The notes under the pieces: generated by a model
What the model saw: the letters and a program-made list of their open reading frames with translations, nothing else
What the model was told of the DNA's origin: nothing
Databases searched by the model: none
In this document: piece by piece, positions 3,586-14,192 of the stretch
Layout: every line of letters starts with the position of its first letter
Position numbering within the stretch: the first letter of the stretch is position 1
Origin: an uncultured delta proteobacterium
GTDB taxonomy: Bacteria; Desulfobacterota; RBG-13-43-22
DNA: 32,000 bases
Direction: 5' to 3'
Assembly: GCA_963743305.1 (NCBI GenBank)
Contig: CAVUPH010000042.1
Span: 1 to 32,000, forward strand
Translations under genes and position numbers: made by a program

Positions 3586-6500
3586 ATGTTGGAAAAAATC
3601 ATCGCCTTGGTGCTCAGACAGAAAGGGACGGTCCTGGTTTTCTCGTTGCTCCTCGTGGCCTTTGGAGTCTATTCCTATATCAAGCTTCCCATCGACGCCT
3701 TCCCCGATGTCACCAACATCCAGGTGGAAGTCGTCAGCCACGCCAACGGACTTTCCGCACTGGAGATCGAGCGTTCGGTGACCTATCCCATCGAAATGTC
3801 CATGCGCGGGCTTCCGAAGAGTCAAACAGATGCGCTCTGTCACCAAGTTCGGCCTTTCCCTGGTGACCATTGTCTTTGAAGACAGTGTCGATATTTACTT
3901 TGCCCGACAGCTTGTCTTTGAGAGACTGGCCGAAGCGAGGGAGAATGTCCCCAAAGGCGTCGAAGTCGCCATGGGACCCATTGCGACCGCCATGGGGGAG
4001 ATATACCAGTTCACGCTCGACGGCAAGATGCCCGATGATCCCCAGAAGAAAATCGAGTATTTGACGAACTTGAGAACGATTCAGGAATGGATCATCAACC
4101 CGCTGCTGAAAAGCGTTCCGGGAGTGAACGAAATAAATTCCTTCGGCGGGTATTTCAAGCAGTATCAGGTGATCGTTTCTCCCGACAGGCTCTTGAAACA
4201 TAACCTTTCCGTCGACCAGGTATACACGGCGATCGAAAAGAATAATCAGAATGCCGGCGGGAATGTGACTCGAAAAATACTCCGATCAGTATATCGTCCG
4301 GGGCGTCGGACTCATCAAGAATACGGCCGACATGGAGAACATCGTTCTCAAATCCTCCGGCGGCACGCCGACTTATCTGAAAGACGTTGCCGAAATACGG
4401 ATCGGGGAAGCCGTCCGGCAAGGCGCCGCCATGATCAACGGCAAGGACGAGGCGGTCGGCGGCATTGTCATGATGCTTCGGGGAGAGAACAGCCGCGAAG
4501 TGGTCGAACGGGTCAAGGAGAAGGTCAAAGAAATAAACGAGAACAACATTCTCGCCAAAGGGAATCAAGATACTACCCTATTACGATCGGTCCGATATCG
4601 TGAATGCCAGTGTCGCCACAGTCACCAAGGCGCTGGCTCGAAGGCGCCTTTCTCGTATTGATCGTTCTTTATCTTCTGCTGAGAAGCTTCAGGGCCTCCT
4701 TCGTCGTATTGATTGCCCTTCCGCTTTCTTTGCTGTCCACCTTCATCGTCATGAAGATAGTTGGATTAAGCGCCAATCTGATGTCTCTCGGCGGATTGGC
4801 GATTTCGATCGGCATGATCATAGACGCGACCATCATTCAGGTGGAAAACGTCCAGAGGCATCTCAGCGAAGACGCGGCATCGGAGCGCAAAAGCTACTAC
4901 CGTGCTCAAGGCGGTCCTCGAGGTAAGAAAGCCGAGCATCCTCGGCGAGTTGATCATCGCCATCACCTTTATTCCCATTCTGGCCCTGGAAGGGATTGAA
5001 GGGAAGATGTTCGGGCCCCTGGCCATGACGGTCGCCATCGCCCTTCTCTCGTCCCTGGTTCTTTCGATCTTCGTCATTCCGGTCTTGTGCGCCCTGATCC
5101 TGAAGCCGCAACCGGAAAAAGAGAGCGTCATCATGAGGCCTGTAAAGAAACTCTATCTGCCGGTGCTCAAGTACACCATGAAGAAGAGAAAACCGGTCTT
5201 GGCCACGGCCGGTGTCTTTCTTATCCTGTCCCTGGTCATTATTCCACGGCTGGGAACGGAATTCATACCGATCATGGATGAAGGGGCTTTTGATATGGAT
5301 GTATCTCTTCTGCCCGGCGTTTCACTGGATAAAGCCATGGAGATAAACAAACTCATAGGTGAAAAGCTAAAAACGTTCCCGGAATTGCAAACGGTGGTTT
5401 CCCGAACGGGACAAACCGGGGTGGCCCTGGACACGCGGGGTGTGGATAAGACCGGCTACGTCGGGGTGTTGAAGCCGAGAAAGGAATGGAAAAGCGATCT
5501 GAACCGGGAGGAATTGACCGGCAAGATGAGAGAGGCCTATAGAGGCCATACCGGGAATAGGATTTGGTTTCAGCCAGCCCATCCAATGCAGAATCGATGA
5601 ACTGGTGGCCGGAACGCGGGCCCAGCTTATTCTGAGACTTTTTGGCGAGGACATGGAGATATTGAAGATCGAAGGCGGACGAAATAGCGCGGGTCCTCTC
5701 CAAAATCGAAGGCGCAACCGATTTGCTTACGGAAAAGGTGACCGGGCAGTCGTATCTCACCATCGAGATAGACCGACCGAAAATCGCCCGCTACGGATTG
5801 AATATCAGCGATATCCAAAACCTGGTTGAAATCGCTATTGCCGGCAAATCGGCATCCAGGTTCTATGAGGAGAACAGGAGCTTCGATATTACCGTCCGCC
5901 TGCCGGAGGAAAACAGGAACTCGGTGGAGACCATCGGCAATATTCTGGTGCCGACGGCGGGCGGTTCGAATGTTCCCCTCAGTCAGCTGGCGAAGATCTC
6001 TCTCTCGGAAGGACCGGCACAGATAAGCAGGGAGGACGGCCTACGGAGAATCGGCATCGAGATGAACATAGACGGAAGAGACATCGGGGGTTTTGTCGCA
6101 GGAAGCAAAACAAAAGATAGCGGAAAAGGTGAAACTGCCTTCCGGATACTACCTCACCTGGGGAGGACAGTTTGAAAACCAGCAGCGGGCCATGGCCAAG
6201 ATGATGATCATCGGACCGGTGGCAATCGGACTGATTCTGCTTCTCCTCTTTGCCACCTTCCGATCGATAAAACCGGCCCTGCTGGTAATCCTCAATCTGC
6301 CCTTTGCCTTGATCGGCGGCGTGTTCTCGCTGTGGATTTCCGGTCTATACCTGTCGGTTCCGGCTTCGGTCGGGTTTATCGTGCTCTTCGGGGTCGCGGT
6401 GTTGAACGGGGTGGTTCTGGTGTCCCGCATCTCCCAATTGCGCGAGGAAGAGGGGTTGGAGTTGACGGAGGCGATTCTCAAAGGCAGCGCAAGACCGATT

Positions 6501-6702
6501 GCGTCCGGTGCTGATGACGGCCTCTATCGCCATTTTCAGTCTGATCCCCATGCTTTACGCCGGTGGAGCAGGTTCTGAAATCCAGAAACCGCTGGCCACT
6601 GTGGTGGTGGGGGGATTGGTGACCTCCACGCTTCTGACGCTCTTGCTCATCCCTTCCATGTACGGCTGGTTCGAGAAAAAACAACCTGAGGCTGAAATGT
6701 AA
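3586..6702 (+). pseudogene. czcA: CzcA-like heavy-metal-efflux RND inner-membrane pump, at least 8 frame changes
   Basis: The N-terminus MLEKIIALVLRQKGTVLVFSLLLVAFGVYSYIKLPIDAFPDVTNIQVEV is typical of the CzcA/HME-RND family. A continuous RND-like sequence can be followed through ORFs 3586, 3830, 4332, 4604, 4902, 5605, 5723, 6093 and 6499, with frame order 1,2,3,2,3,1,2,3,1. It ends VVGGLVTSTLLTLLLIPSMYGWFEKK. Confidence 0.8.
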
Positions 6703-9142: not shown

Positions 9143-10055
9143 CTAACAAGGCTTTCTGGCCTCAATATAGGCTGAAACGACATAATCAGCCGCATTTTTA
9201 CTTTTTTCCGGCTCCCACTCCCGGATTATTTCCTGGCTTTTGTCGTGAGGGATGACCCTGATTTCCCTGAAACCGGCCTTCCGCAGCATATCTTCGGTAT
9301 CTTGAATCGTGGCTGCACCCCCGATGCAAGCGCTGAGCAGGGCCAGATTGTTTTTGATGTCCTCCGGCAGGGGAGCTGTCGCCACGACGTCGGAGATGGC
9401 CAGCCTCCCTCCCGGCTTCAGTACCCTGAAGGCATCACGATACACCGCTCGTTTTATCCGGCGATAGGTTGATCACGCAATTCGACATGATAATGTCGGC
9501 CGTGTTATCGCCGACCGGCAGGTGTTCGATCTCCCCCAGGCGGAATTCGACGTTCGTGTGCTTGAATTTTTTCGGCATTTTTTCTCGCCTTGCTGATCAT
9601 GTCCGGCGTCATGTCCACACCGATGATGTGTCCCGTTTCCCCTACTTCCTTTGCGGCCAGGAAGCAGTCGAAACCACCGCCGCAGCCCAGATCGACCACC
9701 GTCTCTCCGGGTTTAAGGGAGGCCAGCGCCACCGGGTTCCCGCAACCCAGCATCATGTTCGCCCCGTCGGGAGCGCTGTCTAAATCCTTCTGGGAATAGC
9801 CAAGGTTCCCCATGTAAGCGGCCATTTTTTCAACGGAAAAATCCACCGCGCCGCAGCAGGATGCCTCTTGCCCGGAAGCGGCATCGGTAGCCCCGCAGCA
9901 TGACACCAGAGGGAAGAGCGTTCCTTTGAATATCGCTTGTCGAACAACACGACGCGGCAGATCCAGGTTTCGGGTGTGTCGTTCCCTGCCTTGGCGATGC
10001 TGCCGTAGCGGTCACGTACGGTTGCCCTTATTTTTTCTTTTTCCATCGTTTCCAT
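9143..10055 (-). pseudogene. arsM: Arsenite S-adenosylmethionine methyltransferase (ArsM-like), several frameshifts
   Basis: Four minus ORFs in three reading frames hold consecutive ArsM segments. 9780..10055: [17 protein letters not shown]. 9830..10015: SCCSTSD. 9505..9906: [85 protein letters not shown]. 9143..9445: AFRVLKPGGRLAISDVV...IGGAATIQD. Confidence 0.75.
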
Positions 10056-10069
10056 TGATTAATCTCCTT

Positions 10070-10360
10070 TCAATTAAAAAAATTCTTTAAGGCCGCTACG
10101 GCCTCGGGATCGATAAAATATTCGATTTTTTGCCCGTTCCGCTTCATTCTGATCAAGCCGGCCTGACGCAATTCCTTGATATGATGAGATAATGTGGAAG
10201 GAACGATCCCGAGGTCCTGGCCGAGGTCTCCCACACATGTGCAAACGTCCGGACCGGAATTCGATTTTTCCGGAATGCTCCACACGGTTCCAGGAGAGCA
10301 ACACGAAATTAGTCGCAGGAAAATCCTCAACCGGTTCGGGTTGGAAAGGGCTTTGAACAT
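10070..10360 (-). CDS. arsR: ArsR/SmtB-family metalloregulator
   Basis: 96 aa. FKALSNPNRLRIFLRL..CTCVGDL...STLSHHIKELRQAGLI is the wHTH core with a Cys-containing metalloid site. It is divergent from arsC. Confidence 0.85.
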   Translation of the reverse strand: MFKALSNPNRLRIFLRLISCCSPGTVWSIPEKSNSGPDVCTCVGDLGQDLGIVPSTLSHHIKELRQAGLIRMKRNGQKIEYFIDPEAVAALKNFFN

Positions 10361-11322: not shown

Positions 11323-11678
11323 CCGCGCGCCCAGGTTCCTGGCCGATTCGATAGCCTCCGGGTCATCCGCTATTTCTCCCACCGCAAAAGCCCGGCCATG
11401 GACCCCTCGGTTGGCCGGTATCATCTCGTGTTCAGGAAAAAGGCCTGAATCGCCGTTATCGCGCTTTCCGCGCCATCTCTCCGGCCCACCACGACGGCGC
11501 CGCCAATCCTATTTCTCAGTTGCCCTTTGATGCACCAGGTGCGATCCATAAATATCTTGAGCTGCCCGGATACATTATTGATGAGGAAATCTCCTCCGGT
11601 TACGGATAAGGTTTCTTTCAGCAGGTAATCGGTGTTGCTGTTTTTCCTTGGGCTTCCGGAAATATACAAGACCTTCAT
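11278..11678 (-). pseudogene. NADPH-dependent FMN reductase / iron-sulfur flavoprotein-like gene with an internal deletion and a frameshift
   Basis: MKVLYISGSPRKNSNTDYLLKETL is the flavodoxin-like N-terminus. It jumps directly to NVSGQLKIFMDRT..LRNRIGGAVVVG, so roughly 50 residues including the usual Cys region are missing. The C-terminus MIPANRGVHGRAFAVGEIADDPEAIESARNLGARLIELG is in another frame. Confidence 0.6.
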
Positions 11679-11709: not shown

Positions 11710-12021
11710 TTAGACAGGGTTATTGGGTCGGTTGACTTCGTCCACTACCCGGCGGACGTCAGCCAGGCATCAGCGACCTTTCGGGTTTTTTGCGGCACAG
11801 TCACACCCACCGGCTTTCTTTGCGGCGGAGATCTTTTCCAGAATCAGGGAACGGCCATTCTTGATGAAATCCTGTTCGATATCCCGCCTGGTATGACCGA
11901 AACAGTAACAAACAAGATCGGTGGTCTGTTTTTCCTCGGGAATCCGGTCATCGGGACGACCCCAAGCGACCGGTATCGGTGCTGTCGGCACAATTAGATT
12001 AATTTCTTTCGCTTTTTTCAT
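11710..12021 (-). CDS. CopZ-N-terminal/BFD-like [2Fe-2S]-binding protein, probable selenoprotein (UGA at 11770-11772 read as Sec)
   Basis: Track ORF 11770..12021 ends ...VCYCFGHTRRDI...GGCDCAAKNPKGR at TGA. The same frame continues C-L-A-D-V-R-R-V-V-D-E-V-N-R-P-N-N-P-V to TAA at 11710-11712. A hairpin (CGUCC/GGACG plus UGAC/GUCA, loop GCCGGGUAGU) starts 8 nt after the UGA. Confidence 0.7.
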
Positions 12022-12052: not shown

Positions 12053-13208
12053 TTACTTTTTGGCCTCTCGAACCACTCCTCTGGCTATCCCTACTAAAAG
12101 CAGGAGGAAAAGTCCATATAACCCATAAAAGGAGGCATACCCAACGGAGGAAATTATTCTCCCTCCGATGGCCGTGCCTACGCCGCCGCCGCCCATGAAG
12201 CCGAAAGCCACCAAGGACATGGCGGTACCCCGGGCCATCTTGGCGAATTCCGTCGCGATGGTGATCAGACTGGAATGGGCCAGCATGAATCCAATACCCA
12301 ATAGGGCGATGGCTATGACCAACAGCACGGGTTGTGTAGTGACCGAGAATAGAAGACCATCGGCGATTACGGCCGAGAGAAGGCCAAGACTCAAGGTATT
12401 CAGCCGGCCGATTCGTTGCGCGATTTTTCCCACCAAGCGACCGGTAATCACCGCCCCGGCCCCGAAGGCGGTCAGGATCAAGCCGATAACAAAATAATTA
12501 TAGCTGAAGAGGTATTCGGTATAGGCCCCCAGAGTAGGAAAAAGAGCCGATGATCAGGATACCTTCGAGGAGAACGACGATATAAACCCAAAGACTCCGC
12601 ACATTACGCAGCAAGTCAACATAGGGCTTGAAAAAGCGACTGTTCGGGTTTTTCTTGGAGTGGGCCTGACTACCGACGAGGATCAACAGCAGGGTGGAAA
12701 TAACGGAAAGGGCGGCATAAGTGAAAAAGACCCCCCGCCAACTGACGAAATAGGCAATGGAGCCCCCCACCGCCATGCTCAATCCTTGCCCCAAAAAAGC
12801 GATTCCCATAAAGGTGCCGATGGCCTGCTGACGCCGCTCCATCGGAATCACATCCCCGATCAAGGCCAGTGAAATGGGCATGACCGAGGCCGCAAAAACG
12901 CCGGTGACGGCCCGGTACAGGGCCAGGTCAAAAAGGCCGAGGCCAAGCCCGCACAAGGCCGTGCCGACGGTGAAGAAGATCATGGAGAAGGTGATCACCG
13001 GTCGTTTTCCATAGCGGTCGGCCAGTGGTCCAAAGACCAACTGGAAGAGGCCGAAAGGGATCATATAGGCGCTGATCAACAGTCCGGCCCGAACCGGAGA
13101 AACCTGTAAGGACTTGGCAATAGCCGGGAGGATAGGGGACACCACCCAGTTGTCGGCCATGACCACAAAACCGGCCAGGCCCAGATATTAAAATAAGGCG
13201 ATTTTCAT
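12053..13208 (-). pseudogene. MFS transporter with an early nonsense codon and one frameshift
   Basis: The ATG at 13208 gives MKIALF, then TAA, then YLGLAGFVVMADNWVVSPILPAIA (TM1). ORF 12498..13166 and ORF 12053..12481 join if one nt is corrected at the C5/G5 run near 12527-12533 (..FSYSG / YTEYLFSYNYFVIGLILTAFGAG). Confidence 0.65.
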
Positions 13209-14192
13209 TCATTTCTTTTCCTTTTCCAATGGCTGTTTTTGGAGTGGTAACGGACCCTCCTGTGCGCATAGGTTGCACAAAAGATCCATGGGGGCATAGC
13301 CTTCCGTCTCAAACTGCAAAATGGGGTGATCGACTTTAAATCGGCGGTAGAGCAGCTCCCGGACCCGGGCGGCTATTTCATCCACCTTACTCAGTGGCTG
13401 GTCGGGTACAATGATATGGGCCGCCAAAGCGATACTTCCTGAGGAAGGGTTCCAGACATGGAGATGGTGCATGCCCTTAATACCTTCTAATGCCTCCACC
13501 TCCTGTTGTATGGATTGGAGATTCATGCCCGGAGGGGCGGCATTCATTAATATGAGCAGGGCCTCTTTAATAATTCCCCAGCCGCTATAAAGGATCAAGG
13601 CGACGATAGCCCAGGAAATCAGAGGATCGAGCCAGTACCAGGGACGGAAGATCCAAATTACGCCTAAAAGTGCCACGCCGATGGAAGTCAGGGCATCGAC
13701 GAGCATATGCAGGAAGGCCCCCCGCAGATTCAGATTTTCTTTCGCTCCGGAGTGCAATAGTAAGGTGGACAGGCCGTTGGCCGCAAAAGCGGCCAGGGCC
13801 ACCCAGATGACGATCGTTCCTTGAATAGGGACAGGATTTTTCAGGCGGCCCCAACCGGCTGCGGCGATATAAAAGGCGGCCCCGAAGAGGAGGGCCACAT
13901 TGAAGACGGCGGCCATCACCTCCACCCGCCGATAGCCGAAGGTTTGGTTCAGGCTGGGTCCTCGACCGCCGATCTTCAGGGCGGCATAACTGATCATCAA
14001 GGAGGTCAGGTCGCTCAGGTTATGCAGGGCATCGCTGATTAAGGCCATGCTGCCCGCTATGATCCCGGCATAGATCTCGATCAAGGGAATGATCAGATTC
14101 AGGATCATGGTCAGGATCAAACGCCGGCCCCAGGGGATTTCCGCTTGATTATGATTATGAGACCCTATTTCCAAGGCCGAGCCCTCCATCAC
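13209..14192 (-). CDS. Cation diffusion facilitator (CzcD/ZitB-like) metal exporter
   Basis: 327 aa with six TM helices. SDALHNLSDL and HMLVDALTS are CDF signatures, and a C-terminal cytoplasmic domain is present. It overlaps the ccdA stop by 4 nt. Confidence 0.9.
   Translation of the reverse strand: MMEGSALEIGSHNHNQAEIPWGRRLILTMILNLIIPLIEIYAGIIAGSMALISDALHNLSDLTSLMISYAALKIGGRGPSLNQTFGYRRVEVMAAVFNVALLFGAAFYIAAAGWGRLKNPVPIQGTIVIWVALAAFAANGLSTLLLHSGAKENLNLRGAFLHMLVDALTSIGVALLGVIWIFRPWYWLDPLISWAIVALILYSGWGIIKEALLILMNAAPPGMNLQSIQQEVEALEGIKGMHHLHVWNPSSGSIALAAHIIVPDQPLSKVDEIAARVRELLYRRFKVDHPILQFETEGYAPMDLLCNLCAQEGPLPLQKQPLEKEKK

Follow-up and report, generated by a model that had tools for sequence, protein, structure and literature searches.

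This locus raises the question of whether a small iron-sulfur protein gene ends where the gene caller ends it, or whether the TGA at that point is read as selenocysteine (Sec) and the gene runs on. The window, by which we mean the whole 32,000-nucleotide stretch of contig CAVUPH010000042.1 from an uncultured delta proteobacterium, carries on its minus strand an ORF that opens with the ATG at 12021-12019, reads MKKAKEINLIVPTAPIPVAWGRPDDRIPEEKQTTDLVCYCFGHTRRDIEQDFIKNGRSLILEKISAAKKAGGCDCAAKNPKGR, and then meets a TGA at 11772-11770; the caller's ORF has 83 residues, the last of which, ...CDCAAKNPKGR, stand directly before that TGA. Past it, the same frame continues with a TGC (Cys) and 18 further sense codons (LADVRRVVDEVNRPNNPV) to a TAA at 11712-11710, for a total of 103 codons; this continuation had been noted in an earlier reading of the stretch made from the letters alone (the sequence-only reading), and both the nucleotide sequence and its translation confirm it. 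We consider it highly probable that the locus (11710..12021, minus strand; 103 codons plus TAA) encodes a 103-residue selenoprotein with a [2Fe-2S] domain like that at the N terminus of CopZ (CopZ-N/BFD-like), in which a SECIS element recodes the UGA, and that this protein has a role in metal(loid) handling. The 83-residue ORF call is very probably too short, the real gene having 103 codons with the UGA at 11770..11772 (minus strand) read as Sec84 in the motif G82-R83-U84-C85, which is the GxUC motif catalogued for such proteins. No Shine-Dalgarno sequence was evident upstream of the ATG at 12021 on inspection of the sequence.

A database search with the read-through product as query returned 99 homologues, and nearly all of their called ORFs stop exactly at ...NPKGR. 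Such uniformity among gene calls speaks for one alternative, namely that the UGA is a true stop, that the 83-residue protein ending in NPKGR is functional, and that the hairpin following the UGA regulates transcription or translation or acts as a terminator. Nine of the 99 homologue ORFs carry a "W" followed by CL[AP]DVR[QR]VVD; because one sequence, P0009, can be translated only with TGA read as Trp, the W residues in these nine ORFs are TGA codons. P0010 is a genuine Cys-Cys form (TGT TGT in locus L025), and P0019 has Ser-Cys at the column pair. About 90 of the 99 database homologues are thus cut at ...NPKGR or misread with Trp. Calls cut at this point are missing the Sec residue, a structural helix, and an invariant Cys that is a likely cluster ligand, and expression or modelling from the truncated database entries would be work on a nonfunctional fragment.

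We obtained 152 loci by scanning GTDB genomes and JGI metagenomes, and in the 131 that could be read with the motif anchor CYCF...CxC...NP..x-C, the UGA column holds TGA in 26 and TGC or TGT in 105, the following residue always being Cys. The sequence-only reading had stated that Cys-only relatives carry Cys-Cys exactly here and had proposed to look for Cys in the UGA column of a homologue alignment; both the 105 loci and an alignment of 47 sequences (A2) place it there. The TGA loci belong to delta-proteobacterial or Desulfobacterota-type MAGs (e.g., Desulfurivibrio, Desulfonatronovibrio, and Desulfatiglandales), with the addition of two Actinomycetota MAGs, and TGA is present in every strong match among the family-level relatives of the source genome; the motif is G-x-U-C in 24 other delta-type loci and G-G-U-C in the two from Actinomycetota. 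The Cys loci, which belong to Planctomycetota, Acidobacteriota, Deinococcus, Bacteriovoracaceae, Verrucomicrobiota, Chloroflexota, and other taxa, have the sequence NP[KQ]G[ST]-C-CLG[DN]V. Across these phyla the tail after the column (CLADVRxVV or CCLG[DN]V) is kept in frame despite very different nucleotides. Frame-independent conservation of the downstream segment, which the sequence-only reading had named as a sign against recoding, is therefore not what we found; the tail is conserved as protein. The 19-codon tail, maintained as amino acids in about 100 Cys-type genes of other phyla among others, argues against a true stop, as does the loss from a truncated product of the invariant C85 and of a confidently predicted helix.

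Two groups of sequences show changes of state at this column. L025 (301-579), which lies inside the Sec clade, has Cys-Cys (TGT TGT) and yet retains a full 8-bp SECIS-type hairpin with an AGGU loop, which is consistent with a recent conversion from Sec to Cys. The two Actinomycetota MAGs (L072:3001-3207 and L090:3001-3201) have this domain in a Sec version, NPGGG-U-CTAQV, which probably represents a Cys/Sec switch independent of the delta-proteobacterial clade.

Recoding in bacteria would call for a SECIS element close behind the UGA, and a core hairpin of this type folds at 11739..11758 (minus strand), within the codons for V-R-R-V-V-D. Its 7-bp stem, CGUCCGC/GUGGACG, pairs 11758-11752 with 11745-11739 around a 6-nt loop, CGGGUA (11751-11746), and begins 11 nt past the UGA. 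An optional lower stem of 5 bp, UGGCU/AGUCA (11765-11761 with 11737-11733), enlarges the structure to an extended stem-loop at 11733..11765 (minus strand) in the window sequence only; distant homologues keep the upper hairpin alone. The stem-loop that the sequence-only reading had placed after the UGA is thus present, but in a slightly different register, the one that homologues conserve: its CGUCC/GGACG stem extends by a G-U and a C-G pair, which reduces the loop from 10 to 6 nt. In the window, the MFE over the 60 nt that follow the UGA is −16.6 kcal/mol, and the hairpin by itself is unremarkable against shuffled sequences (z = −1.2, 61-nt fragment), a result that on its own would suit a true stop and that leaves the significance of the hairpin to the comparative data. 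An 8-bp stem right after the UGA (UGCCUGGC/GCCGGGUA), which appears in the 61-nt single-sequence fold, was rejected; unlike the hairpin at +14 to +33, it is not kept by homologues.

The comparative data are consistent in several respects. In 60-nt folds of 24 distinct Sec-type sequences, a recurrent element, GUCCGCC-AGGU-GGUGGAC, covers the codons for V-R-Q-V-V-D and lies 11–13 nt after the UGA. By our own definition (at least 5 bp, usually 7–8, with GU in the loop and at the conserved position), the hairpin occurs in 22 of 26 Sec-type genes versus 5 of 91 Cys-type genes (Fisher p = 3e-15), with L025, the Cys-Cys form of the Sec clade, among the five. When the sequences of a 22-member alignment are compared, 89.8% of the paired cells can pair, versus 33–69% with the 3′ partners slid, and double-sided changes are found at two pairs, including a C-G to U-A change in L031 and L032 that replaces Asp by Ser or Asn and keeps the pair; the closeness of the sequences keeps covariation modest. 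Conserved amino acids are encoded within the hairpin, and synonymous sites of the Sec-type genes are informative here: their normalized entropy is 0.82 over the 34 codons upstream of the UGA versus 0.28 over hairpin codons +5 to +10 (Mann-Whitney p = 6e-4), with Arg+6 written CGC in 21 of 21 genes, Val+5 GTC in 21 of 22, and Val+9 GTG in 20 of 22. The hairpin is under RNA-level constraint beyond that of the amino acids. In its distribution, its pairing, and its frozen synonymous sites it behaves as the SECIS-like element for which the sequence-only reading took it. The Actinomycetota Sec genes have a different tail, CTAQVRGVAAEA, and L072 forms a hairpin of its own (CCGCGG-GGUCG-CCGCGG) at the same distance; in its close relative L090 no hairpin fitting our definition was found. 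The geometry and the GGU loop presumably resemble those of the minimal SECIS of E. coli fdhF. The family consensus, GUCCGCC-AGGU-GGUGGAC at 12 nt after the UGA, could be used for re-annotating the family.

A hairpin that tracks the TGA state of the gene is difficult to reconcile with a terminator or regulatory element behind a true stop, and a terminator-like site was looked for and none was found. Taken with the in-frame tail, these observations lead us to regard termination at the UGA as very improbable. We propose instead that the UGA at 11770-11772 is recoded to Sec by the standard bacterial route: the hairpin 11 nt downstream, with its GU-containing apical loop and its position inside the VRRVVD codons, would, we infer, recruit SelB together with Sec-tRNA(Sec, UCA). 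The comparative signature itself is observed directly.

Whether the organism can perform this recoding was addressed in the source genome (43 contigs, 4.9 Mb, ∼90% complete, 5.7% contamination), in which the sequence-only reading had proposed a search for selABCD. Most of the machinery is there: a full-length SelB (363 bits), a tRNA-Sec with anticodon UCA (75 bits), and a SelD with its own in-frame UGA (...TRAAG-U-ASKLGPG...). An insertion of 1 nt near ...HEAG(c)ALLVGGH... splits the SelD gene (L010:1440-1960, minus strand, equivalent to G000 C26:∼76321-76841) into two frames, and a search of the ∼90%-complete assembly with TIGR00474 and PF03841 found no SelA. Because SelA is present in 3 of 3 same-genus and 12 of 12 same-family genomes, its absence is most likely due to an assembly gap; nevertheless, with SelA not found and SelD broken by one nucleotide, the Sec pathway of this particular strain is, as assembled, incomplete. 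The SelA genes of two same-genus relatives (G001 and G003) are also split, and such split SelD and SelA genes may be either assembly indel errors or real decay.

The same genome contains a further set of genes that touches on the decoding of UGA. A 92-nt tRNA (L016:1498-1589, minus strand) reaches 50.8 bits with the Rfam model for tRNA-Sec (gathering score 47) and has the Cys anticodon GCA; directly downstream of it lies a second SelB-like gene (L002:674-2736, minus strand), split into ORFs of 465 and 213 aa, and an HdrD/CCG-like Fe-S gene adjoins the pair, which corresponds to G000 C14:98746-100810. This arrangement matches the selC* tRNA-Cys/selB* arrangement published for Syntrophobacterales and Desulfobacterales, in which all of the selC*-carrying genomes have complete Sec systems (PMC5389517).

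Read-through of the UGA could alternatively insert Cys or Trp instead of Sec, whether by a selC*/selB* tRNA-Cys, by near-cognate suppression, or under an alternative genetic code. The tRNA-Sec-shaped tRNA-Cys directly upstream of the second SelB-like gene, the failure to find SelA in the assembly, and the translation of the homologous TGA as Trp in some public gene calls would all be in keeping with such an explanation. However, the anticodon GCA reads UGC and UGU, not UGA, and we rejected Cys insertion by the selC*/selB* pair on this ground; the genome has a canonical tRNA-Sec(UCA), SelB, and Sec-type SelD, all close relatives have SelA, and the published selC* genomes have Sec systems that are complete. 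Reading of TGA as Trp under code 4 or 25 was rejected as well, because neighboring genes, namely the adjacent CDF and CcdA genes, end at TGA as an ordinary stop. We therefore give read-through as Cys or Trp little credence and retain Sec as the residue inserted.

The residue following Sec84 bears on what the extra 20 positions contribute to the protein. In alignment A2, C38, Y39, C40, F41, C75, P80, and C85 are invariant, column 84 holds U or C with one Ser, and C73 (11803-11805, minus strand), a neighbor of C75, is not conserved. The only match of solved structure is 2HU9, part of A. fulgidus CopZ (E = 0.009 with the single sequence; E = 7.6e-6 with the A2 profile), in which Cys75, Cys77, Cys109, Cys118, and Cys119 align with C38, C40, C75, U84, and C85, respectively. 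We take the cluster ligands of 2HU9 to be Cys75, Cys77, Cys109, and Cys119. By this alignment the four [2Fe-2S] ligands of the window protein are likely to be the two Cys of the invariant CYC motif (C38-Y39-C40; 11902..11910, minus strand), C75 (11797..11799, minus strand), and, as the fourth, C85 (11767..11769, minus strand), directly after Sec84. The sequence-only reading had taken the U-C pair for a Sec-for-Cys substitution at a metal or cluster ligand. The substitution itself stands, given 26 TGA versus 105 Cys loci, whereas the placing of Sec at a cluster ligand is not established: since the four other Cys are invariant and column 84 varies between U and C with one Ser, Sec84 is more likely a fifth conserved thiol/selenol beside the cluster than one of its four ligands.

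AlphaFold2 run on A2 predicts residues 35–98 as a confident core (pLDDT ∼90–96) that includes a helix at residues 86–97, wholly after the UGA, and gives low confidence to the N-terminal ∼34–35 residues. A Foldseek search of the model against the PDB returned no significant match, 2HU9 included; because the model is of a 60-residue cluster-binding domain built without its cofactor, we took this result as uninformative and relied on the profile-sequence match. On that match we regard the protein as a homologue of the [2Fe-2S] portion of the N-terminal domain of A. fulgidus CopZ. Its profile match to Pfam PF04324 (Fer2_BFD) narrowly misses the gathering score (22.1 bits against 26; profile positions 1-49 of 50), which is consistent with distant relatedness, and the match to NifU (TIGR02000) is weak (19.3 bits). 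Fer2_BFD and the central domain of NifU share with it the CxC...C...C pattern of [2Fe-2S] binding. The last two ligands of Bfd have CxxC spacing, unlike the C-x8-(U/C)C spacing of the window protein, and to our knowledge there are no Sec forms of Bfd itself.

The family to which the gene belongs has been described before. Two reviews (PMC9312934, 2022; PMC13188914, 2026) list a "(2Fe-2S)-binding protein (CopZ family) form 1" under cd10141, with the motif GxUC, one Sec only, and WP_245779778.1 as example sequence, citing Zhang & Gladyshev 2008; they list separately a "form 2", the Csac_0668 family, with the motif CU. The terms "CopZ", "2Fe-2S", and "BFD" are absent from the main texts of the primary papers that the reviews cite (PMC2398784 and PMC5029168), so the attribution to the 2008 GOS paper rests on the tables of the reviews. 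By its motif, G-R-U-C, we assign the window gene to form 1, with which it shares the exact motif G82-R83-U84-C85, the type of domain, the single Sec, a delta-proteobacterial MAG lineage, and a metal/metalloid context. Nothing essential differs; the window copy is stand-alone and has a 35-residue N-terminal leader of low predicted confidence. The family and its Sec form being already catalogued, the present result is a correction of annotation rather than a discovery, and it adds one more member to a predicted selenoprotein family tied to metal/metalloid resistance operons. In the literature searched, we found no report of experimental Sec insertion or of an Fe-S cluster for any form 1 member.

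The sequence-only reading had also pointed to an NCBI family of 2Fe-2S (seleno)proteins of this type. Such a family exists (NF045877, CopZ_Nterm_CU, "Csac_0668 family 2Fe-2S cluster-binding (seleno)protein"), but the window gene is not a member, scoring 23 bits versus a cut-off of 190 over positions 99-158 of 161. The two have in common a homologous C-terminal CxC...C...(C/U)(C/U) segment and a Sec/Cys alternation; they differ in that the N-terminal ∼100 residues of NF045877 (form 2) are absent from the window protein and that Sec is the second of the pair (CU) in that family and the first (UC) here. A second model, NF047645 (CopZ_Nterm_CC), is matched at 55.4 bits (E = 7e-15; positions 80-137 of 138) and likewise below its cut-off, which is 100. 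With both cut-offs missed and the N-terminal ∼80–100 residues absent, the gene should not be filed under either. As for the A. fulgidus CopZ N-terminal domain (2HU9; Sazinsky et al. 2007, J Biol Chem 282:25950), which combines Zn and [2Fe-2S] sites and is fused to an HMA copper chaperone, the likeness lies in the five aligned Cys columns and in the association with HMA; the A. fulgidus protein, however, contains Cys at all of these columns and bears an additional Zn subdomain at its N terminus, which the window protein does not have, and its HMA domain is C-terminal, whereas that of the bacterial fused relatives is N-terminal.

The surroundings of the gene have a metal-resistance character and are visibly eroding. 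On the minus strand it stands in an operon that is headed by ArsR and continues with genes for thioredoxins, a SurA-like/Trx fusion, CcdA, a CDF exporter, an MFS transporter, the selenoprotein, and a flavoprotein, with ArsC and ArsR lying beyond. Three genes in the window are split over two or more frames, those for the MFS transporter (12053-13166, minus strand), ArsM (9143-9906, minus strand), and an RND pump (3830-6578, plus strand), and the FMN-reductase-like flavoprotein gene (11370-11678, minus strand) has an internal deletion. A deletion in the flavoprotein gene, of varying extent, is common to L098, L099, L100, and L113, so this decay, at least, is real rather than an artefact of sequencing. 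The close relatives share the operon but differ in what has been deleted. Gene order in L100 matches that of the window; the CDF and MFS genes are gone from L098 and L099, and in them the last ∼35 codons of the CDF gene (...DLLCSLCGQEGPVALQKQP...; L098:2235-2339 and L099:357-461, corresponding to window positions 13209-13320, minus strand) remain directly upstream of the BFD gene and run into its start, which explains the odd N terminus of P0004. In L050 and L188 the BFD gene is itself reduced to a 5′-truncated remnant after CcdA. By comparison of these loci we regard the operon as a deletion hot spot.

Such erosion could mean that the gene is itself a decaying pseudogene in a degrading metal-resistance island and that the TGA is a nonsense mutation. 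The frame-split MFS, ArsM, and RND neighbors, the internally deleted flavoprotein gene, the remnants in L050 and L188, and a paralogue on contig C22 of the source genome with several frame breaks would all fit this explanation. However, the window copy has an intact frame across all 103 codons, and its dN/dS is 0.13–0.45 (against the close relatives L026 and L098–L102 and the more distant L032 and L112). A TGA at the identical column in 26 loci of diverged lineages, together with the conserved SECIS, is also difficult to ascribe to chance nonsense mutation, and we judge it most unlikely that the gene is a pseudogene. A selenoprotein gene still under selection thus remains our reading of the locus.

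The relatives of the gene show a recurrent association with HMA domains. In roughly half of the database homologues the domain is fused to an HMA domain, and many homologues begin immediately behind the HMA motif. One metagenomic HMA-BFD fusion (L023:1211-1726, plus strand) is intact and has three in-frame TGA codons, two at the Cys positions of the metal-binding CxxC of HMA (GMT-U-MG-U) and one at the GR-U-C site, giving a protein with three Sec; a fourth TGA is likely the real stop, and rhodanese and DoxX/MauE genes lie upstream. In L104, L107, and L108, a separate signal-peptide MerP-like HMA gene of ∼110 codons with the motif GM[VA]-U-xx-U stands directly upstream of the BFD gene, ending one codon before the Sec-type BFD start. 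HMA(UxxU) and BFD(U) are thus associated repeatedly, in fused form as well as in neighboring genes. No in-frame HMA domain precedes the window gene, the MFS gene occupying that place. The N-terminal leader of its product (...PTAPIPVAWGRPDDR...) resembles the HMA-BFD linker of P0017 and P0024, and this likeness suggests that the window protein descended from an HMA-fused form.

As to function, the protein would most likely act as a redox-active accessory in metal(loid) handling, its cluster passing electrons to, or sensing, a soft metal or metalloid that is bound or reduced at the selenolate. CopZ of A. fulgidus reportedly reduces Cu(II) to Cu(I), and the proposed role draws on this by analogy. 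One could go further and envision that the Sec84 selenol is bonded to the [2Fe-2S] cluster or lies at bonding distance from it, as an exchangeable fifth ligand or in a Se-bridged site, and that the ancestor was a three-Sec metallochaperone of the form HMA(UxxU)-linker-BFD(GxUC); we consider this extension unlikely, if worth stating. Were it true, the three-Sec metallochaperone would use its cluster to reduce a soft metal or metalloid held between selenolates. It would then serve as a natural Fe-S/selenolate redox module in the handling of Cu, Hg, or As, with the stand-alone window copy as the minimal electron-transfer half of the ancestral protein. We know of no Fe-S/selenolate redox module that has been characterized biochemically.

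The source genome also has a second, HMA-fused paralogue, that on contig C22 (L181:1397-1939, minus strand, equivalent to G000 C22:∼9534-10076). It has at least three frame changes within ∼540 nt and may be either a pseudogene or a locally poor piece of assembly; the adjacent 491-aa RND gene is intact. Across its frame changes, the paralogue reads MENDKFKTIRLTVVGMT-U-MS-U-VPKV..., followed by ...CYCFGYT...NPKGR-U-CLADVRRV.
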